Source: an uncultured Marinilabiliaceae bacterium
Lineage (GTDB): Bacteria; Bacteroidota; Bacteroidia; Bacteroidales; VadinHA17
Reading direction: 5' to 3'
Length of the DNA stretch: 64,000 nt
Assembly (NCBI GenBank): GCA_942491535.1
Contig: CALOBV010000007.1
Span: 2,583 to 66,582 of the forward strand
Below are positions 1 through 22,530 of this stretch, one piece after another. The translations under genes were made by a program, and so were the position numbers. Position 1 is the stretch's first letter; every line of letters starts with the position of its first letter. The notes below the pieces were generated by a model. That model was given only the letters and a program-made list of their open reading frames with translations, made no database searches and had not been told where the DNA came from.

Positions 1-680
1 ATATTGTTTTCTAAATGAATATGTCGATGAAGGTCGGTCTCAAAATCCTTTAAGGTTTGATAGGTTACCTGGAAGGTTCCACAGCCATCAGGAGGACAGG
101 TATAAGATGAAGTTAGTTTTGAAATTTTCTCAAACGTTCTCCTTCTGTTTGTATGTTCTTCATGCATTAAATCAATGATTTTTTTTACTTCACCAAATTC
201 ATTTTTGCAATTTAACTTTCTTTTTTATATTTTACCATCTTCCGTATATAAGGGAAACAGGATTAATTCTTCTTTTTTCATATGAGCACTTAAGATTTTC
301 TGCTGCACCATCAAACAATTCTTTTATTTCAAAAAGTTCAGGATGGTTTTCTCCATGCACATCACATAACTTTTGTAAGTTTCTCCTGAAGAAAAGGAAT
401 ATTTTCACTTACATAGGTATGATGTCTTTTTTCAATATAATCGCAAAGCTCATTCAATTCTAGTCCGTCAATATATTTTGAATCGGGATCATTAATTGCA
501 CTAAAGCTTCTAACTCTGGCACTAATTTGATTAATATCTACATTTCGATTTTTTACATGCTTCTTCAAGGCTTATTCCTCCACCACAGCAAAAGTCAATC
601 TTATTTTTATCGAATATTTGTGCTGTTTTAAAATTGGCTTTTACAATTTCTCCTACGCTTGTATTTGTATTTATTTCCAT
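1..680 (-). pseudogene. Iron-sulfur cluster repair di-iron protein (RIC / ScdA / YtfE family), multiply frameshifted; C-terminus runs off the window start
   Basis: Minus-strand ATG at 680-678 opens MEINTNTSVGEIVKANFKTAQIFDKNKIDFCCGGGISLEEACKK, a ScdA_N-type N-terminus. Later pieces sit in other frames: NVDINQISA..LCDYIEKRHHTYVSENIPFLQEKLTKV (ORF 362-568), VHGENHPELFEIKELFDG, HMKKEELILFP, and NEFGEVKKIIDLMHEEH...CPPDGCGTFQVTYQTLKDFETDLHRHIHLENN (hemerythrin-like di-iron motifs). There are at least 5 frame changes, near 549-554 (A6 run), 364, 290, 252 and 230. Confidence 0.8.
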
Positions 681-715
681 AATATATTCATTTAATTGTT
701 TGACAAAGATATAAA

Positions 716-755
716 AATTTTATAAAAGGACATTCGTATGTCCTTTTATAAAATT
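716..755. promoter_or_regulatory. Perfect 18-bp inverted repeat with 4-nt spacer between divergent ric and norB starts; candidate operator
   Basis: AATTTTATAAAAGGACAT tcgt ATGTCCTTTTATAAAATT, arms 716-733 and 738-755, checked base by base. It lies 36 nt from the ric ATG (680) and 42 nt from the norB ATG (797). Confidence 0.45.
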
Positions 756-796
756 ATTATATATTTGTTTTCGAAAATTTTAAAATCATTTCAATT

Positions 797-3050
797 ATGA
801 AGACAAAAAAACTTTGGATTGGATTTATTTTGGTCATGGTTATTTCGTTTGGAATACTAGGTTACTATGGGCGCGAAATATACCGTGAAGCACCACCTAT
901 ACCAGAAAAAGTAGTTACAAGTAATGGAGAACTACTGTTTACAGGTCAAAACATCAAGGATGGTCAAAACATTTGGCAATCTATCGGTGGACAGGAAGTA
1001 GGAACTATTTGGGGGCACGGGGCCTACCAGGCACCTGACTGGACTGCTGATTGGTTGCATCGTGAGGCTGTTTATATTCTTCGATCGATTTGCACAAATC
1101 CGAATTTGAACTGGACGTATGATAAGCTTGATGAAGAAAAACAAGCCATGCTTCAAAAAAGACTGCAAAAAGAAATGAGAACCAACACCTACAATAAAGA
1201 AACGAAGACTTTACATATATCCGAAATTCGCGCTGAAGCTATCAAATTTGTTGGTAGTCATTACCAAGGATTGTTTATGAATGGTGAAGAACAAGAAGGA
1301 TTTACGTGAAGCGTATGCCATTCCTGCAAATAGCATTAAAGATGCAGATAGAATGGCTAAAATGAATAATTTTTTTTTTGGGCCACTTGGGCAACTGTAA
1401 CCGAGCGTCCCGGACAAGAAATTACTTATACAAACAATTGGCCTCCGGAGAAACTGGTTGCAAATGAACCAACAGCGGGTTCTTTTACTTTGGACAGGAT
1501 TTAGTGTTATTGTTCTTATTGGTTGGTATTGGCTTATTGGCATGGTATTATGCCACACGAAAAAAAGAGGATGATGAAGATGTTGATGTTCCTGCAGTAA
1601 ATCCATTATCGGGTATTCAGCAAACTCCTTCCATGAAAGCAACATTAAAATATTTTTGGGTGGTAACTGCACTTATTTTGGTTCAAATAATTATGGGGGT
1701 TGTTACTGCTCATTATGGAGTGGAAGGTAATGGTTTTTATGGATTGCCACTGGCAGACTTCTTACCCTATTCTATATCGAGAACATGGCATATTCAATTG
1801 GCAATTTTTTGGATTGCGACCTCATGGCTTGCCACAGGCTTATTTATTGCTCCTGCTGTTTCAGGAAAAGAACCAAAATTTCAAAAACTTGGTGTAGAAT
1901 TCTTATTTATTGCTTTGCTTAGTTATTGTTGTTGGTTCCTTAGCTGGACAATGGATGGGTGTGATGCAAAAATTAGGATTAGCTGAAAATTTCTGGTTCG
2001 GACACCAGGGATATGAGTACGTAGATCTGGGTCGTTTCTGGCAAATCTTTCTTTTCATAGGATTGTTTATCTGGTTGTTTTTAATGGGCAGAGCATTGCT
2101 TCCAGCATTAAAACAGCGTAATGAAAATCGTCATTTATTGTTGATGTTCTTAATAGCTTCAATAGCGATTGCATCCTTTTATGGTGCTGGTTTAATGTGG
2201 GGGCAACAAACACATCTTTCTATTGCAGAGTATTGGCGGTGGTGGGTAGTACATCTTTGGGTTGAAGGATTCTTTGAAGTATTTGCTACAGTTGCTATTG
2301 CCTTTTTATTTGTACGAATGCAATTATTAAAAGCAAGTATTGCTACATCAAGTGTTCTTTTCTCAACAATTATCTTCTTGTCAGGAGGTATTATCGGAAC
2401 ATTTCACCATTTATATTTTTCTGGAACACCTACAGCGGTACTGGCTCTTGGAGCAACCTTTAGTGCATTGGAAGTTGCACCGCTTGTTTTTATGGGATTT
2501 GAAGCCTATCACAATTTAAAACTTAGTCGTGCTAAAGAATGGGTAAATGCATACAAGTGGCCTATATACTTTTTTATTGCTGTTGCATTTTGGAATTTAT
2601 TGGGTGCAGGTATTTTCGGATTCTTGATTAATCCTCCAATTGCACTTTATTACATGCAAGGTTTAAACACAACACCCTGTTCATGGGCATACAGCCATGT
2701 TTGGAGTTTATGGAATGCTGGGTATGGGCTTAATGCTATTTGTATTAAGAGACATGAACTTAAAAGTTCAATGGAAAGAGAAACCAATTAAAATTGCATT
2801 CTGGTCTCTTAATATTGGCTTATTATTAATGGTATTGATTAGTGTTTTACCTGTTGGTTTAGCACAAACAGTAGCAAGTGTAAAACACGGATTATGGTAT
2901 GCACGTTCAGCCGAATTTTTGGGTACTCCAACAATGGAAACCATACGTTGGCTTCGGGTGATTGGAGATACTATCTTTACTGTTGGAGCATTATTCTTAG
3001 CCTATTTTATCTTTGGATTAAAAGGAGGATGGTCGATTAAGAAGCAGTAA
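797..3050 (+). pseudogene. norB: Quinol-dependent nitric oxide reductase (qNOR, NorB/NorZ large subunit), at least 6 frameshifts
   Basis: ORF fragments 797-1309, 1504-1986, 1910-2791 and 2697-3050, plus unlisted pieces at 1288-1500, concatenate into one qNOR. Recognisable stretches: WGHGAYQAPDWTADWLHREA, LREAYAIPANSI, FFFWATWATVTERPGQEITYTNNWPPEKLV, FWFGHQGYEYVDLGRFWQ, WWVVHLWVEGFFEVF, GTFHHLYFSG. PVHGHTAMFGVYGML is restored by removing one C of CCC at 2676-2678. Frame changes fall near 1285-1300, 1370-1379 (T10 run), 1485, 1503, 1915-1921 and 2676-2678. Confidence 0.85.
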
Positions 3051-3130
3051 TATAAATCAGTTTTAATAAAGATTCCTCGGATTGAATATCTACTGATTCA
3101 ATCCGAGGATATAGTCTCTTACGATGAAAG

Positions 3131-3674
3131 ATGACAGTTTACGATAAAAAGAGTGAATTAAGACAATACGTTCAGGAACTAAAAGAAAAGGTGTCGGTCT
3201 CTGATAGATTAATATTTTCTCAAGCCATTTTTGACAGAATTGAAGACCTGGAAGTATTTCAACAAGCAAAAACTATTTTGCTCTTTTGGTCAATGGAAAA
3301 TGAAGTTCAAACCCATGATTTTATTAGAAAATGGAAAGGCAGGAAATCAATATTCCTTCCGGCAATTCAAAATGATGATTTAGAGATAAAGAAGTATACC
3401 GGCAAAATGAATATGCTAAAGACTTCAAAGCTGACTTTATTTGAACCTCCTGACAGTGCCTTTTGCCGATCCAAAGGACATTGACCTGGTAATAACACCT
3501 GGCTTGGCTTTTGATCATAATAACAACAGGTTGGGTCATGGTAAAGGTTATTACGATAGATTATTAGCAGGAATGCGCGCATTTAAAATTGGCGTTTGTT
3601 TTAATTTTCAATTGTTTAACGAAATTCCTTATACCTTGAACGATGTAAAAATGGATATGGTTATTACAAATTGA
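3131..3674 (+). pseudogene. 5-formyltetrahydrofolate cyclo-ligase, single frameshift
   Basis: ORFs 3131-3484 and 3441-3674 overlap in different frames. The downstream part carries the family hallmark DIDLVITPGLAFDHNNNRLGHGKGYYDRLL. The junction is around 3455-3470. Confidence 0.75.
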
Positions 3675-3744
3675 TATGAATAAATTCCCTGACTTGAGAA
3701 TTTTGACTTATTTTTATGAATAATTGATATTAAAATCATAAATC

Positions 3745-4941
3745 ATGAATAAGCATATTACGAACAATGTTTTTTGGGTAGGGAAAAATGACTGGGAACT
3801 AAGACAATTCCATGGATACGAATACTCAACCAACAGAGGATCAACGTACAATTCATATTTAATCAAGGAAGAAAAAAATGTGTTGATAGATACTGTTTAT
3901 AAACCTTTCTCATCTGAATTCATTGCCAATCTTTCTAATGAGATAGAATTAAATAAGATTGATTATATTATAGCAAATCATGCTGAGCCTGATCATAGTG
4001 GTGCATTACCAGAGTTGATGAGTATTATTCCTGATACTCCCATTTACTGCACCTCCAATGGCATAAAATCTTTGAAAGGTCATTACCACAAAGAATGGAA
4101 TTTCAAAACTATAAAAACAGGTGACAAACTTCCTATTGGAAATGGTAAAGAGCTTGTATTTATTCAGGCTCCAATGTTGCACTGGCCTGATAGTATGTTT
4201 TCTTATTTAACTGGCGATAATATTTTATTTAGCAATGACGCATTTGGACAACATTTCTGTTCAGAATTATTATTTAACGATTTGGTTGATCAACATGAAC
4301 TTTATTCAGAAGCAATAAAATACTATGCCAATATATTAACCCCATTTAGTCATTTAGTAACAAAAAAAATAGAGGAAGTTATTAATCTTCAAGTACCTGT
4401 AGATTATATATGCACAAGTCATGGCGTAGTATGGCGTGATAATCCTTTGCAAATAGTTTCAAAATACAAGGAGTGGGCTAACGACTATCAGGAGAACCAG
4501 ATTACCATAATCTATGACACAATGTATAACGGAACACGATCAATCGCTGAGAGTATGGTAAAAGGTATATATTCAGTTGATAAGAATGTGACCATTAAAC
4601 TTTATAATGCTGCAAGCAATGATAAAAATGACATTATCACTGAGGTTTTTAAATCTAAAGCTATACTGATTGGCTCACCAACTTTGAACAATGGCATTAT
4701 GCATTCAATAGCAGGTCTGCTGGAACTTATAAAGGGACTTAAGTTTAAGAATAAAAAAGCAGCTTCTTTCGGATGCTATGGATGGCACGATAAATCAACA
4801 AAAGTAATATCTGATATTTTGACCGAATCAGGTTTTGAAATTATTTCCGAACCAATAAAATCAATCTGGCATCCGGATAAAGATATGTTAAGCAAGAGTC
4901 ATGAATACGGCAAGCAGCTTGTGGCACTCATAAATGATTAA
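3745..4941 (+). CDS. Flavodiiron protein (FprA / A-type flavoprotein), NorV-like NO reductase core without the rubredoxin domain
   Basis: 398 aa with a metallo-beta-lactamase-like domain (NHAEPDHSG) plus a flavodoxin-like domain. Long stretches match what I recall of E. coli NorV: NNVFWVGKNDWELRQFHG, YNSYLIKEEKNVLIDTV, PMLHWPDSM, LFSNDAFGQH, YYANILTPFS, TSHGVVWRDNP. It ends about 80 aa short of a flavorubredoxin. Confidence 0.88.
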   Translation: MNKHITNNVFWVGKNDWELRQFHGYEYSTNRGSTYNSYLIKEEKNVLIDTVYKPFSSEFIANLSNEIELNKIDYIIANHAEPDHSGALPELMSIIPDTPIYCTSNGIKSLKGHYHKEWNFKTIKTGDKLPIGNGKELVFIQAPMLHWPDSMFSYLTGDNILFSNDAFGQHFCSELLFNDLVDQHELYSEAIKYYANILTPFSHLVTKKIEEVINLQVPVDYICTSHGVVWRDNPLQIVSKYKEWANDYQENQITIIYDTMYNGTRSIAESMVKGIYSVDKNVTIKLYNAASNDKNDIITEVFKSKAILIGSPTLNNGIMHSIAGLLELIKGLKFKNKKAASFGCYGWHDKSTKVISDILTESGFEIISEPIKSIWHPDKDMLSKSHEYGKQLVALIND

Positions 4942-5012: not shown

Positions 5013-5318
5013 TTGATTCTTGCAACTTACAGAATATCAAGAATGATAGTATATGATAAGGTATTTGGCTATTTCAGATACCTGATAAGAGTTAGATCAG
5101 GCAATAGTTTCTTCAATTCTATAAATAATCTTATAACCTGTCCCTGGTGTACCAGTGTTTGGATTGCATTATTCTTTTTTGACATTTACTATATGGTCTC
5201 TTATGGAAATTATTTTATTTATCTGATGGTGATATCAGCTATTGCCAGTCCACTGATATTACTAAGCAACTATTTGTCACTCCAGAATGATATTCTTAAG
5301 AAAAGGAGAGACGGGTGA
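5013..5318 (+). CDS. DUF1360-like small membrane protein
   Basis: LATYRISRMIVYDKVF ... CPWCTSVWIALFFF pattern followed by hydrophobic helices. The start may lie slightly upstream (TTG near 4983). Confidence 0.6.
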   Translation: MILATYRISRMIVYDKVFGYFRYLIRVRSGNSFFNSINNLITCPWCTSVWIALFFFDIYYMVSYGNYFIYLMVISAIASPLILLSNYLSLQNDILKKRRDG

Positions 5319-5319
5319 A

Positions 5320-6400
5320 CAAGTGTATTGCAAGCGTGCAGAGGAAGCGAGTTTGCAAATACTCTTGTAGTGCGAGGACAAAAAAAGGGTAGGGGAAGAA
5401 ATCAAAACGAGAATGGGGGAGAATTGGCAATTGAGCAATAGATGCTTTTGTAAGTTATTATAAGAAAAGGAGATATTGCGAGATTTTGGGTAGGAGAGGG
5501 GCTATTTAATATAGTGCTAATTATAGGCAAAGGACATTCGTCCAGGTACAAGATTCAAGACACCAGACTTAAGGCTTGCAAGATTATAAGATTATGTTGA
5601 AGTATAAATGTTCGCTGCGCTCACGTTAAAAGTTAAAACGATGGAATTCAGATGATTATACTTTAGATCTATAGATTACAAATCTAATAGTCAGGTACTT
5701 ATAAAGTTACGGTTGATATAATTTCTATTTAACATAATGTTAGAAATGCGGCAAACGACGAACGGCTAACGGCTAACGGGAGAGACTAGGTCTTGTATTA
5801 ATCTTGAAGCTTATAACTATAATAATAGCCGCAGGCAAACAGATCTAGAATCTTAAATCGTTAATCTGGCGTCTTAAATCAGAAGCTCTTATTTGTTATA
5901 CAGTCATAGATTTCTCGTCGTTGCACTCGCTCGGAATGACAAACAATTCAACACTTTAACGCTTCAACATTTCAACAATATTCTGATCCATTGTACAGTC
6001 TCTAATCAAATATGCGATTCTAATGAAGTTAAAACCCGTAATCCGGTTTCCGGTCTTCGGTCTCCGTTGTCCGGATCTATTTAGCATAATATCACATTAT
6101 AGCTGCAAATAACCGCATGAGCGAAGGCAAACAAATTGCGAGGGTAAGTTATCCAGGAAACAATATTTGTAAGCGTAGAACAAGCGTACGGTTTATATGA
6201 GCCACAAATTGCTTTATCATAAAATCGGTACCGTTATCGGATCTGGCGTCCGATAACTGATTTTATGCTAAATACTGCGTATGCGCAATTTGTTAGCGGA
6301 TTTGCCTATAATTAATATTATGTTAAATAGGAGATATTCCAAAATACTGCCTTATCACCTATCTGTGGTTTGTTGTCAAAAAACTGTGGAAATCTCTTTA
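5320..6400. repeat. 1.1-kb non-coding, repeat-dense island between convergent genes
   Basis: Only two short low-complexity track ORFs fall here (63 aa; 75 aa running on to 6508). A roughly 30-bp unit CTATTTARYATAnT..AATTATAGGCAAA occurs at 5502-5531(+), 5725-5755(+), 6077-6109(+) and 6301-6330(-). Several micro-tandem arrays are present: AACGGCT x3 at 5761-5781, four GTTGAAAT-type 8-mers in minus orientation at 5945-5976, and a CCGGTYT-like run at 6036-6076. Confidence 0.8.
6218..6267. other. Composite 18-bp hairpin / nested inverted repeat inside the non-coding island
   Basis: CATAAAATC (6218-6226) pairs with GATTTTATG (6259-6267). GTTATCGGA (6233-6241) pairs with TCCGATAAC (6249-6257), with a 7-nt loop TCTGGCG. 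Confidence 0.7.
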
Positions 6401-6401
6401 A

Positions 6402-6431
6402 TAAAAAACGGGACCCTTATCAGGATCCCGT
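6402..6431 (-). terminator. Rho-independent terminator of the TPR gene
   Basis: ACGGGA/TCCCGT stem extended by 3 further pairs, 4-nt loop, followed on the minus strand by a T6 run. It lies 24 nt past the stop at 6455. Confidence 0.7.
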
Positions 6432-6454
6432 ATATATTATTATTGTATGATTTA

Positions 6455-7603
6455 TTATCCTTCCAGCTCTTCTATCCTGGCTTTTACCTCGTCGTACTTT
6501 TCAGTTAACTTAAGACGATAGTAAAGTTCTCTTAAACTGGTAAGTGTTGACATATCGTCCGGACGAAGATCCCTGGCCTTTTCCATAAATGGAAGTGCAT
6601 TTCCAAATATTACCATAGCCTTCTCTATTGCCTTATTGTATTCAGTATTGTCCATAATGTCGTTTGCTGCATCAAACATCGCAGATGCCTTATTATAGTA
6701 GCAAACACCCATATTAAATTGAGTATCAAAAAGATCAGGCTTAATTTCTATTGATTTTCCAAGAGCAGCTATAGCTTCATCATATTTGTCCTGCTTCATA
6801 TACAAAACGCCTTCAGCCCAGTATAATGAGAAATTAGCATCATCCTTCTCTTTGGCCATTGTAATATACTCAAATGCATTATCATCCATCTCGTTAACCA
6901 GGTAAAAATCAATAAGTTGCAGTAATACCTGATCGTCTTCGGGAAATTTCTGGAATGCCTCAATAAGCGTCTTTTCGGCATTTTCAAGGTCACCCATATC
7001 GCTATACGTCATATACTTACGCAAATATGGAGTACCGCCTTCATATTCCATTTCAATACATTTATCATAATACATAATTGCCTTTTCGTAATTCTTGGCG
7101 TTATATGCTGTAAGCCCGGCATTAAAAACTACTGCCGTATCCATCAGGCCCATATATTTATCGCTGGATTGAATTTCGAGAAGGGTTTCAAATGCAATAA
7201 GTGATTTATCGAAATTTTCAGCCTCAAACTCGGTTATTGCCCATTCCAGGAAATCGTTAGATAATGTGGGGTACTGGAGAATGATCAATTTATCAATCTG
7301 TTGTTTATCATCCAGCTCCATGGCCTTTTGATAGCTCTGGTGCGCAATCATCAAGGGGTCAGTATATAAGTTAAGATTCTCATCTTTTGCTTCATAGCTT
7401 GCCTGGGCCAGTCTTCCCTGAACATAATATGTTTTAGGATAACCTACCGTCTTCTCGTGAACCAGTGCTTCGTCAACAGCTTCTTTAGCTTTAGAAAGAT
7501 TATTAGCATCAATCATGTTTAAAGCGGTGTTTACTTTACCCTTCTGGGCAAATCCACCAAGAACAAAGACCGAGATCAATAGTGAAAGAAAAAATCTTTT
7601 CAT
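6455..7603 (-). CDS. Secreted tetratricopeptide-repeat (TPR) protein
   Basis: Signal peptide MKRFFLSLLISVFVLGGFAQ, then repeated 34-residue A/Y/L helical motifs throughout the 382 aa. Confidence 0.75.
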   Translation of the reverse strand: MKRFFLSLLISVFVLGGFAQKGKVNTALNMIDANNLSKAKEAVDEALVHEKTVGYPKTYYVQGRLAQASYEAKDENLNLYTDPLMIAHQSYQKAMELDDKQQIDKLIILQYPTLSNDFLEWAITEFEAENFDKSLIAFETLLEIQSSDKYMGLMDTAVVFNAGLTAYNAKNYEKAIMYYDKCIEMEYEGGTPYLRKYMTYSDMGDLENAEKTLIEAFQKFPEDDQVLLQLIDFYLVNEMDDNAFEYITMAKEKDDANFSLYWAEGVLYMKQDKYDEAIAALGKSIEIKPDLFDTQFNMGVCYYNKASAMFDAANDIMDNTEYNKAIEKAMVIFGNALPFMEKARDLRPDDMSTLTSLRELYYRLKLTEKYDEVKARIEELEG

Positions 7604-7689: not shown

Positions 7690-10188
7690 TTACTGTTCCA
7701 CAGCACCATTTTCAATTTGATCTTCCTCGACTGTATCTTCTTCATTTAGTTTAACTTGCGCCACAGCAGCTATAGAATCATTTTCTCGTAAATGAATAAG
7801 ACGAACACCCTGTGTAGCTCTTCCCATTACTCTAAGTGAAGAGACCGGTAACCTCAATACCGTCCCTACCTCTGTTATAATCATAAGATCAAAATTATCG
7901 GTTACTGCCTTAAGAGCCACCAGTTTACCGGTTTTATCGGTTACATTTATTGTTTTTACTCCCTTGCCACCCCTGTTGGTTATCCTGTAATCATCAGTTT
8001 GCGAGCGCTTACCATATCCTTTTTCAGATACAACAAGTAAATTTTCATCACTGTGCTCAACATCAATTGTTACCATGCCAACTACCCTGTCGTTATCATC
8101 ACGACGGGTAATACCTCTAACTCCTGAAGCCGTTCTGCCCATTGGCCTGACTTTTTCTTCCGGGAATCTTATGGCCCTGCCTGATTCAACAGCTAACATA
8201 ATATGATGTTTACCATTTGTAAGTCTTGCCTCCAGAAGCTCATCTCCGTCTCTGACAGTAATTGCATTTACGCCATTTTGTCTTGGGCGTGAATATGCTT
8301 CCAGAGAGGTTTTCTTAATAATCCCGTTTGTGGTGCATAGGACGATGTAGTTATTATTAATATAGTCTTCATCGTTCAGATTCTTGACATTTATATATGC
8401 CATTACTGCATCATCGGGCTCCAGGTTGATCATATTCTGCATAGCCCTCCCCTTCGATGTACGGGTTCCTTCAGGAATCTGGTAAACCTTAAGCCAGAAA
8501 CATTTCCCCTTTCTTGTAAAGAAGAGCATTGTATTATGCATTGTTGCAATATAGAGATGTGAAATAAAGTCTTCTTCACGCGTTGTACTGCCCTTTGCTC
8601 CGATTCCTCCCCTGTTCTGTACCCTGAAATCTGTCAGAGGGGTTCTTTTTATATAACCCATATGTGAGATAGTAATTACCATCTCTTCGTCGGCATAGAA
8701 ATCTTCGGGATTAAATTCTTCTGCATTGGGAACTATCTCTGTCCTGCGTTCATCAGCATATTTTTCCCTAACCTCAATAAGCTCATCCTTGATAATCTGC
8801 ATCTGCAAATCAACATTCTCAAGAATCTCCTTAAAATGCTCGATCTGCTTCATTATCTCATCAAATTCACTTCGCAGCTTATCCTGCTCGAGTCCGGTTA
8901 ACTGGCGCAGTCTCATCTCAACGATTGCCCTTGACTGAATATCAGAGAGGCTGAACCTCTCTATAAGTCTTTCGCGCGCTTCATCAGGAGTCTTTGATGA
9001 TCTGATAATCTGTATTACCTCATCTATATTATCACTGGCAATAATAAGTCCCTCAAGAATATGAGCTCTTTTTTCAGCCTGATCGAGTTCATAGCGTGTA
9101 CGACGAAGAATTACCTCATGCCTGTGATCAACAAAATACCTTATAAGGTCCTTTATAGCCAGTGTACGAGGACGACCTGCAACAAGTGCAATGTTATTAA
9201 CACTGAATGATGTTTGAAGCTGACTGTACTTAAAAAGGGTATTCAGAACGACATTGGCGGTGGCATCCTTCTTAAGGATAATTACTATCCTCATTCCGTT
9301 CCTGTCAGATTCGTCGTTTATATAAGAAATCCCTTCAATCTTCTTATCATTAATTTGATCTGCTATCTTCCTTATCATTTCGGCCTTATTCACCATGTAA
9401 GGAATTTCCGAAACAATTATCTTTTCCCTGCCACTGTCGGTTGTCTCAATCTCAGTCCTGGCTCTTACAACAACTCTACCCCTGCCGGTCTCAAATGCAT
9501 CGCGTATGCCCTGCTCACCGTAAATAATGCCCCCTGTTGGGAAATCAGGTCCTTTGACGTATTCCATAATTCCGTCCACGTCGATATCATTATCTCCTAT
9601 ATAAGCTATTATAGCATCTACTACCTCACCCAGGTTATGCGGAGGCATATTTGTTGCCATACCAACGGCTATACCTGAGGCTCCGTTTAACAGGAGTGTG
9701 GGTATTCGTGTTGGGAATACTGTAGGTTCCTGAAGAGAATCATCGAAATTAAGCTGGAAATCGACTGTGTCCTTATCCAGATCGGACAGTGTCTCTTCGG
9801 CTATCTTTCTCAGCCTTGCCTCAGTATACCTCATTGCAGCCGGGCTATCACCGTCGACCGAACCAAAGTTTCCCTGTCCATCAACAAGTGGATACCTTAG
9901 CGACCATGACTGTGCCATTCTTACCATCGCTTCATATACCGAAGAATCACCATGAGGGTGATACTTACCCAGAACCTCCCCTACTATCCTGGCAGATTTC
10001 TTATATGAACTGTTTGCTTTTACACCGAGTTCTGACATTCCGTACAGCACACGCCTGTGAACAGGCTTTAATCCATCCCTTACATCAGGAAGTGCGCGTG
10101 ATACAATTACCGACATCGAATAGTCGATATATGCCGACTTCATCTCCTCCTCAATATTGATCTTTATGATCTTCTCATTGTCTGACAT
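7690..10188 (-). CDS. gyrA: DNA gyrase subunit A
   Basis: 832 aa with [48 protein letters not shown] and [10 protein letters not shown] (catalytic Tyr region), a C-terminal beta-pinwheel and an acidic tail. Confidence 0.98.
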
Positions 10189-13034: not shown

Positions 13035-13065
13035 AAGGCATGTAGTCGGTGGGCTAGATGAGTAG

Positions 13066-13095
13066 AGGGTGGATGGGTTGAGGGTGGATGGGTTC
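13066..13095. repeat. 15-bp tandem duplication AGGGTGGATGGGTTG/C with four GGG tracts
   Basis: Read directly. It sits between convergent clpC (stop 13034) and rimO (stop 13122). Confidence 0.8.
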
Positions 13096-15392: not shown

Positions 15393-15401
15393 TCCTTTTA
15401 C

Positions 15402-15441
15402 GTTTAAGCGTTTAAGTGTTTAAGTGTTTAAAGGTTAGAGC
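15402..15441. repeat. 8-mer tandem array GTTTAAGY x4-5
   Basis: GTTTAAGC GTTTAAGT GTTTAAGT GTTTAAAG GTTAGAGC. It begins 10 nt upstream of the ftsY start codon. Confidence 0.8.
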
Positions 15442-17668: not shown

Positions 17669-17677
17669 CTTTAATAT

Positions 17678-17827
17678 GTTGAAGTGTTAAATGGTAAAAC
17701 GTTAAATTGTTAAATGTTGAAATGTTGAAATGTTGAAATGTTGAAATTGTTGTTAAAAAATTGTGTAAGCGTTAAATTGTTGAAATGTTGAAATGTTGAA
17801 GTGTTAAAGTGTTAAATGGTTGAAAGG
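17678..17827. repeat. C-depleted degenerate 8-mer tandem tract (GTTGAAAT family)
   Basis: GTTGAAGT GTTAAATG ... GTTGAAAT x4 ... GTTGAAAT GTTGAAAT GTTGAAGT GTTAAAGT GTTAAATG GTTGAAAG. Only 2 C in about 200 nt when the adjacent heptamer array is included. It starts 10 nt upstream of the cinA ATG. Confidence 0.85.
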
Positions 17828-17876
17828 TTTAGGGTTTAGGGTTTAGGGTTTAGGGTTTAGGGTTTAGGGTTTAGGG
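17828..17876 (+). repeat. (TTTAGGG)x7 perfect heptamer array
   Basis: Counted directly from 17821-17880: tgaaagg + 7 x tttaggg + ttgt. Confidence 0.95.
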
Positions 17877-17979
17877 TTGTGAATCAAGATTTTAAACTAT
17901 CTCAAGCACTTAGACCTATTAATTTTCAAAATACAAAGTTATTTTTTGTATGTTCAATGACCAATAATTTGTCTTAATA

Positions 17980-18630: not shown

Positions 18631-18698
18631 AGTATGAGTATATAGACCTATTCAGCAAATTTTTCTCCCCTGATTTTTAACTGCCTTAGTGCTTTTAA

Positions 18699-18775
18699 TC
18701 TTTTTACTTTTTATCTTTTTACTTTATCTTTTTACTTTTGTCTTTTTACTTTTGTCTTTTGTCTTTTGTCTTTAT
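18699..18775. repeat. Pyrimidine-rich tandem array (TCTTTTTACTTT x4, then TCTTTTG x3) abutting the tRNA 5' end
   Basis: Units at 18699, 18714, 18727 and 18741. Heptamers at 18755, 18762 and 18769. The array ends 2 nt before the tRNA. Confidence 0.8.
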
Positions 18776-18777
18776 AA

Positions 18778-18849
18778 GCGGGAGTAGCTCAGGGGTAGAG
18801 CATCAGCTTCCCAAGCTGAGGGTCGGGGGTTCGAATCCCCTTTCCCGCT
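18778..18849 (+). tRNA. tRNA-Gly (anticodon CCC)
   Basis: Manual cloverleaf: acceptor GCGGGAG/TTCCCGC, D arm GCTC-AGGGGTA-GAGC, anticodon arm TCAGC-TTCCCAA-GCTGA (CCC), variable loop GGGTC, T arm GGGGG-TTCGAAT-CCCCT. No CCA is encoded. Confidence 0.9.
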
Positions 18850-18868: not shown

Positions 18869-18920
18869 GTTAAGGCAATTGTTAAGTTGTTGAATTGTTA
18901 AGTTGTTGAGTTGTTGAGCT
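18869..18920. repeat. 8-mer tandem array GTTRARTT x6 downstream of the tRNA
   Basis: GTTAAGGCAATT GTTAAGTT GTTGAATT GTTAAGTT GTTGAGTT GTTGAGCT. Confidence 0.8.
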
Positions 18921-18948
18921 GTTTTGCTCACAACTCACCTTCCTATCA

Positions 18949-19977: not shown

Positions 19978-20013
19978 AGTTATAGTGTTATATGTTTGTT
20001 TGCAATATAATAA

Positions 20014-20157
20014 AGTGCCTAAAGTGCCTAAAGTGCCTAAAGTGCCTAAAGTGCCTAAAGTACTTAGAGTGCCTAAAGTACTTAGAGTGCCTAGAGTGCC
20101 TAGAGTGCCTAGAGTGCCTAGAGTACGTAAAGTGTCAAGAGTGTCTGGAGCGCAAAG
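20014..20157. repeat. 9-mer tandem array x16 (AGTGCCTAA / AGTGCCTAG / AGTACTTAG variants)
   Basis: Phased by hand from 20014. The last four units are degenerate. A short CTTAGCT heptamer run follows at 20171-20207. Confidence 0.9.
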
Positions 20158-20185
20158 TTTAGATTTAACCCTTACCACTTACCCC

Positions 20186-21430
20186 TTAGCTCTTAGCTCT
20201 TAGCTCTTCCAGGGCATTGAGCCTGTCAAGAAGAGGAGGGTGAGAGTAGTAAATTGAAACAAAAGCCGGATGGGGATTCAGATTCGACAGGTTTTTAACT
20301 GAAAGTTTAGTAAGTGCGGAAGAAAGTTCTTTTACACTGTATACTTCAGCACTGAAACCATCGGCAGCAAATTCCTGTTTCCTTGATATATAATTCATTA
20401 TTATACTAAGAACCAGTGATACAGGGCTATATATAAGAATAAAAGCCAGCAGGCTAATGTGAAATGAAGTCTGTTCGGCGCCCAATGCCAGTGCAAGTCC
20501 CTGTCTGCCTGAGAGTAACGAAAATATGTACAGCATAAGTCCTGTTTGTATTATCCCGCAAAACAATATTACAGCATTGTGTTTCTTTTTGTAATGGCCT
20601 ATTTCATGAGCCAGGACGGCTGCTATCTGATTAACACTTAAATCATTTGACAGAGTATCGAAAAGAACAATTCTTTTTCTGGAGCCCAGGCCTGAAAAAT
20701 ATGCATTGGCCTTGGAGCTCCTTTTGGAACCGTCAATAGTGTAAATATTTGCAAGGTTAAATCCTGCTTTATCTGCCATTTTTTCTATTGCATCTCTAAG
20801 CTCTCCCTCTTCAAGTGGTTTTTGTTTGTTAAAAAGAGGAACAATAAGTTCTGAATAGAACATATTCATAAATAATGAAAAGAGAGTTATGACACCCCAG
20901 ATGAGAATCCAGAAATTTGGTCCGGTTTCATTAAATATCCAGGCTATTAATGCCAGGAGTGGTGCACCTATTACAGCTGCAAGAATCCATCCTTTAAGGT
21001 GATCAAAAATAAATGTGCGAGGGGTAGTTCTATTGAAACCGTATTTCTCTTCTATCACAAATGTTCCATACAGGTTAAATGGCATATGCCCTATGTCGGT
21101 AGCCAGACCAATAATCCCGAAAAAAAGGATACTGATAAGTAATTCGTTTCCTGATATTGACCTTGCAATGGAATCGACCCATGCGAATCCGGCAAGAAAA
21201 ATCAGCACCACCACAACCACCAGGTTTATTGTTGATGCAATATTGCTGATATTTTTGTTCTCCCGGTAGTAATTCTGACTGCGGCTGTATTCTTTCTGAT
21301 CAATAATGTCTTTAAGTTTATCGGGAACCTTGTCAGTCCACATCTTTCCATTGAAGTAATCAAGTATCAGCCCAAATATATGACCAATAATCAAAATGGA
21401 AATAATCAGGAAGAAATAAACATTATACAT
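20186..21430 (-). CDS. M48 family zinc metallopeptidase (Ste24/CAAX-protease-like)
   Basis: HEIGHYKKKH zinc motif, polytopic N-terminal half, 414 aa. Confidence 0.85.
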   Translation of the reverse strand: MYNVYFFLIISILIIGHIFGLILDYFNGKMWTDKVPDKLKDIIDQKEYSRSQNYYRENKNISNIASTINLVVVVVLIFLAGFAWVDSIARSISGNELLISILFFGIIGLATDIGHMPFNLYGTFVIEEKYGFNRTTPRTFIFDHLKGWILAAVIGAPLLALIAWIFNETGPNFWILIWGVITLFSLFMNMFYSELIVPLFNKQKPLEEGELRDAIEKMADKAGFNLANIYTIDGSKRSSKANAYFSGLGSRKRIVLFDTLSNDLSVNQIAAVLAHEIGHYKKKHNAVILFCGIIQTGLMLYIFSLLSGRQGLALALGAEQTSFHISLLAFILIYSPVSLVLSIIMNYISRKQEFAADGFSAEVYSVKELSSALTKLSVKNLSNLNPHPAFVSIYYSHPPLLDRLNALEELRAKS

Positions 21431-22334: not shown

Positions 22335-22421
22335 AGTTGAATTTTTAATTTGTATTCGCAAAGAAAATGATCTCTTGTATAAAAGACAAGATTTATTGGT
22401 TATTTGTTCGCTGTGCTCACG

Positions 22422-22530
22422 TAATTGGTTATTGGTTAATTGTTATTGGCTCGCGAAGCTCGCGTTATTGGTTATTGGTTAATTGATATTGGCTCGCGAA
22501 GCTCGCGTTATTGGTTATTGGTTAATTGTT
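22422..22530. repeat. 43-bp tandem repeat x2.5 with embedded GC hairpin
   Basis: Copies at 22422-22464 and 22465-22507, plus a partial copy at 22508-22530 that overlaps the sucD stop. Each full copy holds TTATTGGTTATTGGTTAATTG plus CGCGA-AGC-TCGCG. Confidence 0.85.

Follow-up and report, generated by a model that had tools for sequence, protein, structure and literature searches.

A probable dif locus with several XerC/XerD-type sites and a conserved hairpin element on a Bacteroidales chromosome

In E. coli, the recombination site dif consists of two 11-bp arms separated by a 6-bp centre (GGTGCGCATAA-TGTATA-TTATGTTAAAT; PMC3025954), and the switch in polarity of the FtsK-orienting polar sequences (KOPS) at dif is an accepted hallmark of the system (PMC13342612). 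For Bacteroidetes, dif sites have been predicted in 19 genomes (Kono et al., 2011; PMC3025954). In the same year, proviruses of Bacteroidales microviruses were described at dif-like sites, some of them with an extra inverted dif-like site, and no experimental study of chromosome dimer resolution in Bacteroidota was reported in the literature examined (PMC3091885). Here, a stretch of 64,000 nucleotides (hereafter the window) was analysed, which belongs to contig CALOBV010000007.1 of an uncultured Marinilabiliaceae bacterium (order Bacteroidales). The analysis was focused on a non-coding island between two convergent genes, in which a unit of approximately 30 bp is repeated. With a probability of about 0.85, this island represents a Bacteroidales chromosome's dif locus, situated where replication terminates.

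In each unit, 28 bp make up an XerC/XerD recombination site and two further bases flank it, and the repeated sequence is in all probability the XerC/XerD dif site of Bacteroidota. Searching the window with the pattern CTATTTNNYATART-N4-6-ATTATAG-N0-3-GCAAA gave matches at 5502 (plus strand), 6077 (plus strand) and 6301-6330 (minus strand) and nowhere else, while no chance match is expected (100 shuffles). A first-pass annotation, made by a model from the letters of the DNA, had counted four units of about 30 bp. The copies at 5502, 6077 and 6330 are indeed full, but the one at 5725 is only partial, being limited to the first ~13 nt and the final GCAAA. An additional half-copy at 6264-6275 (minus strand) was absent from that list. 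The minus-strand site, named dif-A, reads TTTGCCTATAA-TTAATA-TTATGTTAAAT on the plus strand. It is identical to E. coli dif at 22 of 28 positions, with an XerD arm matching at 11 of 11, and shares 25 of 28 positions with the dif predicted for Robiginitalea (TTGTCCTATAATTTATATTATGTTAAAT; PMC3025954 supplement). Likewise, a Flavobacteriia-type variant found in metagenomes (...TAGTGCAAA) agrees with the predicted dif of Gramella (TTGTACTATAATTTATATTATGTAAAAT; PMC3025954 supplement) at 27 of 28 positions. The dif predictions published for Bacteroides and Porphyromonas look unreliable. Compared with the 28-bp architecture of two 11-bp arms and a 6-bp centre, dif-A fits; dif-C (the copy at 5502) also has a 6-bp centre, and dif-B (the copy at 6077) has one of 7 bp. 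dif-A is taken as the canonical site of the island, to which XerC and XerD are predicted to bind. A literature search for the unit string returned nothing relevant. The unit was also considered as a promoter, either of the Bacteroidetes -33/-7 type or T7-like ending in TATAGG. This candidate was rejected because no TAnnTTTG box with proper spacing was found on either strand and because the match with dif covers all 28 bp.

The distribution of the unit was investigated by scanning metagenomes with the same pattern. More than 120 contigs from soil, marine, sludge and freshwater samples are among the matches listed. Across these contigs the 30-mer is almost invariant and both flanks vary, and the 30-mer of dif-A itself occurs exactly in dozens of metagenome contigs. 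Most contigs carry one site or one tight cluster. The unit lies just downstream of a gene pair coding for the gyrase subunit GyrA and a tetratricopeptide repeat (TPR) protein in at least 30 loci, in which the identity of GyrA ranges from 57 to 87%, and every locus displaying the gyrA-TPR pair has the unit beside it. In the window, this pair adjoins the XerD side of dif-A.

The polarity of candidate KOPS gave a second line of evidence. The motif GGGNAGGG occurs 12 times in the window, and 11 of the 12 copies point at the island (2 of 2 on the plus strand to its left, 9 of 10 on the minus strand to its right), several of them being located on the non-coding strand of their gene. When the flanks of 122 non-redundant loci were pooled (681 kb, with the 300 nt next to the sites excluded), the motif was found 74 times toward the unit and 7 times away from it (p=3e-15). 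Together with the window, these counts amount to 84 toward and 8 away. Control motifs were not skewed (toward:away, GGGNTGGG 16:12, GGGNCGGG 13:13, GGGGGG 17:17), and the overall GC skew of the 'toward' strand was just 0.04. An unbiased search for skewed 8-mers in the same flanks was swamped by the clustered regularly interspaced short palindromic repeats (CRISPR) of four loci. Genes converge on the island and the local GC skew changes sign there. The island is thus shown to lie at the replication terminus, and GGGNAGGG behaves as a strongly polar, dif-convergent FtsK-orienting motif across Bacteroidota contigs. An origin of replication was considered as well and rejected, since the KOPS motifs converge on the island and do not diverge from it, and since no DnaA-box cluster was seen. 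Two further motifs are skewed in the pooled loci, namely GGGAGGG (47:6) and GGGNGGGG (24:3). In one locus (L050, 190-3000; loci are designated here by L numbers), a large CRISPR array starts approximately 100 nt from dif. It is made of the 37-nt repeat GTTTCAATCCTTGTTATAGTGGAAGTAACTCTAAAAT, the words of which are present 32-99 times in the dif-bearing contigs L010, L056 and L060.

By analogy with the E. coli homologues, XerC and XerD would bind the two 11-bp arms of dif-A (6301-6328), and the GGGNAGGG motifs pointing at the island from both replichores would steer FtsK. Upon arrival at dif-A, FtsK would activate strand exchange, by which chromosome dimers would be resolved.

The features of the island and its flanks are collected in Table 1. 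The gap between the gene of the DUF1360 family and the TPR gene measures 1136 bp (5319-6454). No open reading frame (ORF) in it exceeds 75 aa, and for the longest six a Pfam search gave no match. The remaining convergent gaps in the window are 7-87 bp long when ORFs of at least 150 aa are considered (13034/13122, 29306/29360, 38256/38301, 42249/42289, 47156/47164 and 56778/56798). Both initial observations, i.e. about 1.1 kb without a credible ORF and other convergent gaps below 100 bp, were thereby confirmed. The TPR protein had no record in an exact-protein lookup. To the left of the island, some ORFs seem broken: one of the COX1 family is split into 1910-2791 and 2697-3050, and one for 5-formyltetrahydrofolate cyclo-ligase into 3131-3484 and 3441-3674. 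These split ORFs could represent frameshifts, pseudogenes or assembly errors near the terminus.

Table 1. Position of the island features and flanking genes in the window.
Feature	Position	Strand	Description
DUF1360 gene	5013-5318	+	Left flank of the island
R block	5319-5501	+	Purine-rich, on the XerD side of dif-C
dif-C	5502-5531	+	XerD arm ATTTAATATAG (two mismatches), centre TGCTAA, XerC arm TTATAGGCAAA (perfect)
B' (XerD half-site)	5725-5755	+	XerD arm ATTTAACATAA (5727-5737, perfect), centre TGTTAG
Variable spacer	5756-6076		Short tandem micro-repeats (Tandem Repeats Finder, TRF)
dif-B	6077-6109	+	XerD arm ATTTAGCATAA (6079-6089), centre TATCACA (7 bp), XerC arm TTATAGCTGCAAA
Box GCAAACAAATTGCG (CAAATTGCG box)	6127-6140		After dif-B
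Core (hairpin element)	6198-6300	-	Abuts the XerC side of dif-A
dif-A	6301-6330	-	On the plus strand: XerC arm TTTGCCTATAA (6301-6311), centre TTAATA (6312-6317), XerD arm TTATGTTAAAT (6318-6328), AG
Intrinsic terminator of the TPR gene (gyrA-TPR operon)	6408-6431	-	10-bp stem followed by TTTTTT; between the operon and dif-A
TPR gene	6455-7603	-	Convergent right flank of the island; Pfam TPR match
gyrA	7690-10188	-	Pfam DNA_topoisoIV 2e-170; same strand, after the TPR gene

Six XerD-arm-like sequences are present in an 830-bp stretch of the island. The XerD arm is the left one in dif-C, B' and dif-B and the right one in dif-A, so that either edge of the island presents an outward-facing XerD arm. 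dif-B is inverted relative to dif-A and its XerC arm carries a 2-nt insertion. dif-A and dif-B can pair into a stem that closes a 254-nt hairpin (z = -4.9). The order A/core/B/B'/C/R is colinear in six aligned islands, the window being one of them (together with L005, L013, L029, L061 and L079). In these six islands the sequence TTATGTTAAATAGAAA of B' (minus strand) is invariant and the XerC side varies, the XerC arm of B' not being conserved. A B-type sequence ...ATTATAGCTGCAAA is found at the same place in L001, L005, L013, L029, L061 and L079. L001 is the single relative obtained from a genome collection and its contig ends 686 nt past the TPR gene; up to this end, it has the A-core-B part in common with the window. 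A shorter layout was observed in L036/L041, where the R block is followed by a C-type dif, the core and an inverted dif-like site, and in L104 the inverted partner is just 40 nt away from dif. In L006 (821-1925), downstream of a TPR gene fragment, two modules of dif and core face each other at a distance of approximately 0.8 kb, giving a palindromic 'double dif' variant.

The accumulation of XerD arms is not restricted to these islands. In the non-redundant loci, the density of XerD-arm-like 11-mers (at most 1 mismatch) is 1.18 per kb up to 500 bp from the canonical site and approximately 0.17 per kb farther away, an enrichment of about 7-fold. Within 400 bp, the extra 11-mers were counted 92 times on the XerC side versus 15 times on the XerD side. 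Strain-level differences were seen in 9 pairs on the XerC side and 11 on the XerD side, a comparison in which the conserved core inflates one class.

The core, which is 103 nt long, was recognised as a structured element. P1 is formed by GCAAATTGC pairing with GCAATTTGY, and P2 is a variable hairpin. P3 is an XerD-arm-like duplex of 6263-6273 (TTATGCTAAAT) with 6212-6222 (CTTTATCATAA), the strands of which are of the XerD-arm-like forms ATTTARCATAA and TTATGTYAAAG. It is followed by an asymmetric internal loop and by P4 (6233-6257), which is XerC-arm-like. On the 5' side of P3, exactly 6 nt lead to the next helix (ATATRG/TTATCG, XerC-arm-like), as in dif, and on the 3' side a bulge of CGG plus 3-4 nt is conserved. 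As modelled, the core folds into the likeness of a dif site whose centre is unpaired. A covariance model (R1) was built from 19 core homologues. It scores 86.7 bits at the core, the sole copy in the window, and the core was found in about 35 of the 122 loci, including the Flavobacteriia-type L059 and L094. Analysis of 30 distinct homologues revealed that 97.1% of the cells are paired and that 16 of 28 pairs have changed on both sides. None of 500 shuffles reached the observed level, and slid controls paired at 33-42%. The structure which the first-pass annotation had suspected in the island is therefore present at 6198-6300, with conserved and covarying helices.

The core seems to have followed its hosts. 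Between L001 and the window, identity is 90% over the ~133 nt that span dif-A and the core, and just 61% for the TPR protein. The identity of the core declines roughly with that of GyrA, the paired values being 87%/90% for L001, 81%/77% for L029, 75%/77% for L044 and 74%/72% for L025. The core pattern gave no match in 2.9 million viral contigs and 19 in the fetched host loci, and a BLAST search of the A-B segment against phages and plasmids gave no match. Given that its identity tracks GyrA and that it is absent from viral contigs, phages and plasmids, the core was apparently inherited with the host. As judged from sequence comparison, purifying selection on the array would be far above that on the neighbouring proteins.

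On the opposite edge of the island, the R block is 78-88% identical over approximately 130-220 nt in L005, L013, L029, L036/L041, L079 and L090, and the genes beyond it differ among lineages (two-component system, defence-like genes, transposase). It holds a hairpin H1 (5319-5368), the KOPS-type word GGGTAGGG (5387-5394), GAGAATGGGGGAGAAT, a second hairpin and ATATTGCGAGATTT. Covariation is seen in the outer stem of H1 (ACAAG/CTTGT, GCATA/TATGC, GCAAA/TTTGC), and the inner stem is invariant. Without exception in 12 lineages, ..GAGCGG/GGGG and the R block come before the C-type site. The KOPS-type word lies approximately 115 nt from dif-C and points at its XerD arm; at this position G(G/C)GNAGGG-like words are present in the L037 lineage. 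This word would represent a fixed FtsK landing pad. The GC skew reaches +0.60 at 5300-5499, in agreement with the purine-rich 5' third noted at first. The R block of L036/L041 contains a miniature inverted-repeat transposable element (MITE) of approximately 130 bp with the ends GGCCCCGTGAAATAA and TTATTTCACCGGGC.

The spacer on the XerD side of dif-B is filled with micro-repeats, and those announced by the first-pass annotation were recovered with TRF as CGGCTAA x4.4 (5749-5779), an 8-bp unit x4.5 (5942-5977) and TCCGGTC x4.7 (6042-6074). Two ..TCTTAAATC units are located at 5843-5880. The homologous islands display 7-8-bp periodic runs at the same places, with other sequence and length. Elsewhere in the window, intergenic arrays of 7-9-bp units are made of ATGTTGAA x18.6, GGTTTAG x7.6, TAAAGTGCC x13.8 and CGTTTAAG x3.9, with array positions at 13057-13094, 15401-15431, 17676-17878, 18692-18773, 18879-18923, 20011-20208 and 22415-22530. 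A tRNA at 18778-18849 has arrays on both sides. Such arrays of 7-9 bp look like a habit of the clade. The idea that the island is a source or sink of intergenic repeats is not supported, as the core is present once in the window and the locus is syntenic beside gyrA-TPR in at least 30 lineages. Repeats of 7-8 bp are genome-wide in the clade, and those of the homologous islands differ in sequence.

Homologous loci offered natural products of recombination. In L044, L045 and L086, the TPR-side flank is followed by the canonical dif and then by the core, the site being empty. L085 has a flank identical to these three, and a 4.4-kb element is located exactly at the canonical dif (136-4637 in reverse-complement coordinates). 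The element encodes a rolling-circle Rep (PF23343 REP_ORF2-G2P, 2e-11; phrog_3584) and a glucosaminidase. On one side it is bordered by an intact dif and on the other by the hybrid site CTATTTAACAATAGTATTAATTATAGGCAAA, which has a degenerate XerD arm, a perfect XerC arm and a 7-nt centre. The L085 insert has the structure expected of an element integrated by Xer recombination, and it appears to be an Xer-exploiting, single-stranded DNA (ssDNA) phage-like element in Bacteroidales. The hybrid site is directly adjacent to the host core, which places the core outside the element, on the host's side of the junction. A second case is given by L114 and L109, which share 3419 nt at 100% identity, as far as ...CTATTTAACATAA-TGTTAG-A, and are unrelated beyond (breakpoints at 3401-3425 in L114 and 4881-4905 in L109). 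Because the identity ends after the XerD arm and centre of B', this half-site is a recombination junction too. Past the breakpoint, L114 displays a different B*-core*-A* module, in which the A-like site has a 9-nt centre, and then a gene for a Vsr endonuclease. These products show recombination in nature at dif-A and at B'. Other mobile DNA was encountered as well. In L061 (12972-14434), an IS110-family transposase is inserted in the homologous island, next to a small ORF which we take to encode a GIY-YIG nuclease. The sole viral contig matching the dif pattern is L002 (IMG/VR, 5.1 kb). Its site at 4501-4531 is Flavobacteriia-type dif-like and intergenic, and may be a phage attachment site mimicking dif.

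The role of the extra sites can be read in several ways. That the array is a host-maintained accessory architecture for Xer and FtsK stands, in our estimation, at about even odds, and the array may act as a multi-XerD binding platform and folded-DNA element. This reading is slightly favoured over relics of integrated elements, because the array is colinear and diverges in step with its host, it appears to be under far stronger purifying selection than the neighbouring proteins, the core stays with the host at the L085 junction, viral collections lack the core, and the excess of XerD arms on the XerC side extends across the phylum. More tentatively, many Bacteroidota could possess a composite, host-maintained dif locus serving as an FtsK-landing and XerD-loading device. 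Such a locus would consist of two or more dif sites with their XerD arms outward toward each replichore. Between them would lie a conserved element folding, as ssDNA or cruciform, into a dif mimic made of an XerD-arm duplex, an unpaired centre and an XerC-like arm. A fixed KOPS-bearing block would occupy one edge. The device would control dimer resolution, the unloading of SMC (structural maintenance of chromosomes) complexes or the entry of Xer-exploiting phages. Judged by their arm pattern, candidate XerD-only sites are B' and the inner sites of the core.

Some observations weigh against a dif locus, or against the composite form of it. A chromosomal dif does not typically come with several dif-like sites in one locus, a pattern that is classically the mark of integrated elements exploiting Xer. 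The L013 island has a degenerate A-type site and an insertion that splits its dif-C, so that dif-A as the active site fails for this lineage. The GC skew is noisy beyond approximately 10 kb, in a view limited to 64 kb. Many lineages carry dif without the core. Moreover, as the L085 element lies between the core and the intact dif, a core next to the intact site is dispensable in cis, at least transiently.

It is possible, although the odds are clearly below even, that the extra sites and modules are relics of integrative mobile elements exploiting Xer recombination (IMEX, e.g. ssDNA phages). Such elements would enter at dif and leave hybrid dif-like junctions, a host function would be restricted to dif-A, and the inverted arrangement dif-B/core/dif-A would be a leftover attachment region of the CTX-phage type. 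The L085 element illustrates that IMEX use the homologous site, and its hybrid junction, with a degenerate XerD arm, a perfect XerC arm and a 7-nt centre, is similar to sites of the C and B types. That L114 continues past the B' breakpoint with a different module and Vsr suggests module exchange, and B, B' and C are direct repeats, as are attL and attR. Dif-like sites also flank the proviruses of Bacteroidales microviruses, and some of these have an additional inverted site (PMC3091885), which, given the present data, may partly be host architecture. However, genes between direct dif-like repeats, such as Rep in L085, are absent from the island, where no ORF above 75 aa and no Pfam match was found. 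Instead of a variable presence among hosts, six colinear lineages were observed, with one module replacement at B'. Order and sequence are conserved and co-diverge with the host where GyrA is approximately 75-87% identical, which weakens the idea of relics, as neutral relics should have decayed. The core also lies outside the element in L085, and the searches of viral contigs, phages and plasmids speak against a mobile origin. A mixed history, in which ancient integration products were later co-opted, is plausible.

Structured non-coding RNA genes beside dif, the main idea of the first-pass annotation, are an unlikely explanation of the core and possibly of the R block. The strong covariation in three helices would fit an RNA, and so would the stable fold of the core (z = -4.6 as RNA; the value as DNA is -5.4). 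The asymmetric internal loop is conserved, and a G-A mismatch recurs at one position of P4 in our own reading of the alignment. The P4 hairpin is terminator-like on the plus strand. H1 is followed by a T-run on the minus strand in several lineages, so that a minus-strand RNA ending at H1 is an alternative for the R block. On the minus strand of the core, G-U-type mismatches outnumber those of the A-C type (16 vs 7), but this bias is weak (binomial p about 0.09) and folded ssDNA would give the same. No conserved promoter was found upstream of the core, as the 20-60 nt before dif-A differ among loci, no Bacteroidetes -33/-7 box was found in the window sequence, and the terminator of the TPR gene is located just before dif-A. 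A scan with Rfam 15 gave no match in the island of the window (gathering threshold or E<=10) or in seven homologous loci, which bears out the early statement that no known RNA family is present. Known families appeared only as sub-threshold noise (IS128 with 22.7 bits for a gathering threshold of 80, and RefA9 on the TPR terminator). P3 retains the XerD-arm sequence with the exact dif spacing (11 + 6 + TAT) on one side, which points to protein recognition of DNA.

Far less probable is an invertible switch (inverton) flanked by dif-A and dif-B and flipped by Xer. The two 30-bp sites are inverted and 194 bp apart, and in the L037 lineage A and B have the same 6-bp centre TATTAA. In L036 the core lies beside the C-type site, oriented to it as it is to dif-A here, which a past inversion would explain. 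However, the centres differ in the window (TATTAA vs TATCACA, 6 vs 7 bp), so that complete exchange should be blocked. The island also offers no gene or recognisable Bacteroidetes promoter to control, and both orientations were never seen within one lineage. Finally, a cluster of decayed MITE or insertion-sequence remnants, as once proposed, is scarcely credible: the island has inverted terminal-repeat-like arms and its homologues do contain real insertions (IS110 in L061, a MITE in L036), but the core is present once in the window, the place beside gyrA-TPR is fixed across at least 30 lineages, and the 'terminal repeats' are the dif sequence itself.

dif, KOPS, IMEX and the Bacteroidetes dif predictions of 2011 are already known, and so is the unit taken on its own. 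The literature search did not bring up any conserved dif locus that combines multiple sites with a covarying hairpin mimicking dif and a KOPS-bearing block, for which reason the multi-site architecture was considered as a new variant. The present analysis fixes the dif consensus of the phylum. Combined with the polar GGGNAGGG, this consensus is a practical terminus marker for metagenome-assembled genomes and fragmentary assemblies. The analysis also provides natural evidence of Xer-mediated integration at the dif of Bacteroidota. The question is raised whether a chromosomal dif needs or uses accessory DNA, which has so far been linked to plasmid sites (cer, psi) and phage attachment sites. If true, the composite device would be an accessory architecture not described for any chromosomal dif.

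The island resembles the dif/XerC-XerD/FtsK-KOPS system of E. coli and V. cholerae in that the site is located between convergent genes and the polarity of GGGNAGGG switches there. It departs from a classical chromosomal dif by its several dif-like sites in one stretch of 830 bp, by the conserved structured core lying on the XerC side and by the conserved G-rich block at the opposite edge. Sites in the terminus region that combine an intact XerD arm with a degenerate XerC one are a feature shared with B. subtilis; in the island, B' and the inner core sites are of this kind. The 2021 work of Karaboja et al., as cited in PMC12479847 and PMC13342612, is said to have revealed that XerD-binding sites unload SMC complexes at the B. 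subtilis terminus. There they are reportedly dispersed, unlike the packed sites of the island.

Dif-like direct repeats are also found in IMEX such as CTX-phi, VGJ-phi and TLC-phi of Vibrio and the gonococcal genetic island. The attP(+) of the CTX phage is a folded hairpin with an unpaired centre, and the inverted dif-like pair of the island can similarly adopt the shape of a forked hairpin, in which the arms are paired and the centre is not. In contrast to IMEX, the island carries no cargo genes, is conserved and co-diverges with its host. The pdif modules of Acinetobacter are comparable in having a short module between inverted Xer sites with the XerC arms inward, and in the replacement of modules at an Xer site (L114 vs L109). 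They are plasmid-borne and carry genes, whereas the module of the island is non-coding, chromosomal and conserved. As in integron attC, a tyrosine-recombinase site may form by intrastrand pairing with conserved unpaired bases, although the recombinase family context is different. A parallel for the accessory DNA is offered by cer and psi, where approximately 100-190 bp of conserved DNA lie next to the XerC arm. Compared with the ~180 bp of this type, the core and the box occupy 6110-6300 and abut the XerC arm of dif-A, and the extra sites likewise show 7-bp centres. To our knowledge, no PepA, ArgR or ArcA site is known in the island. Unlike cer and psi, the island is chromosomal and located at the convergence of KOPS, and its accessory DNA is palindromic, hairpin-forming and endowed with copies of the XerD arm.

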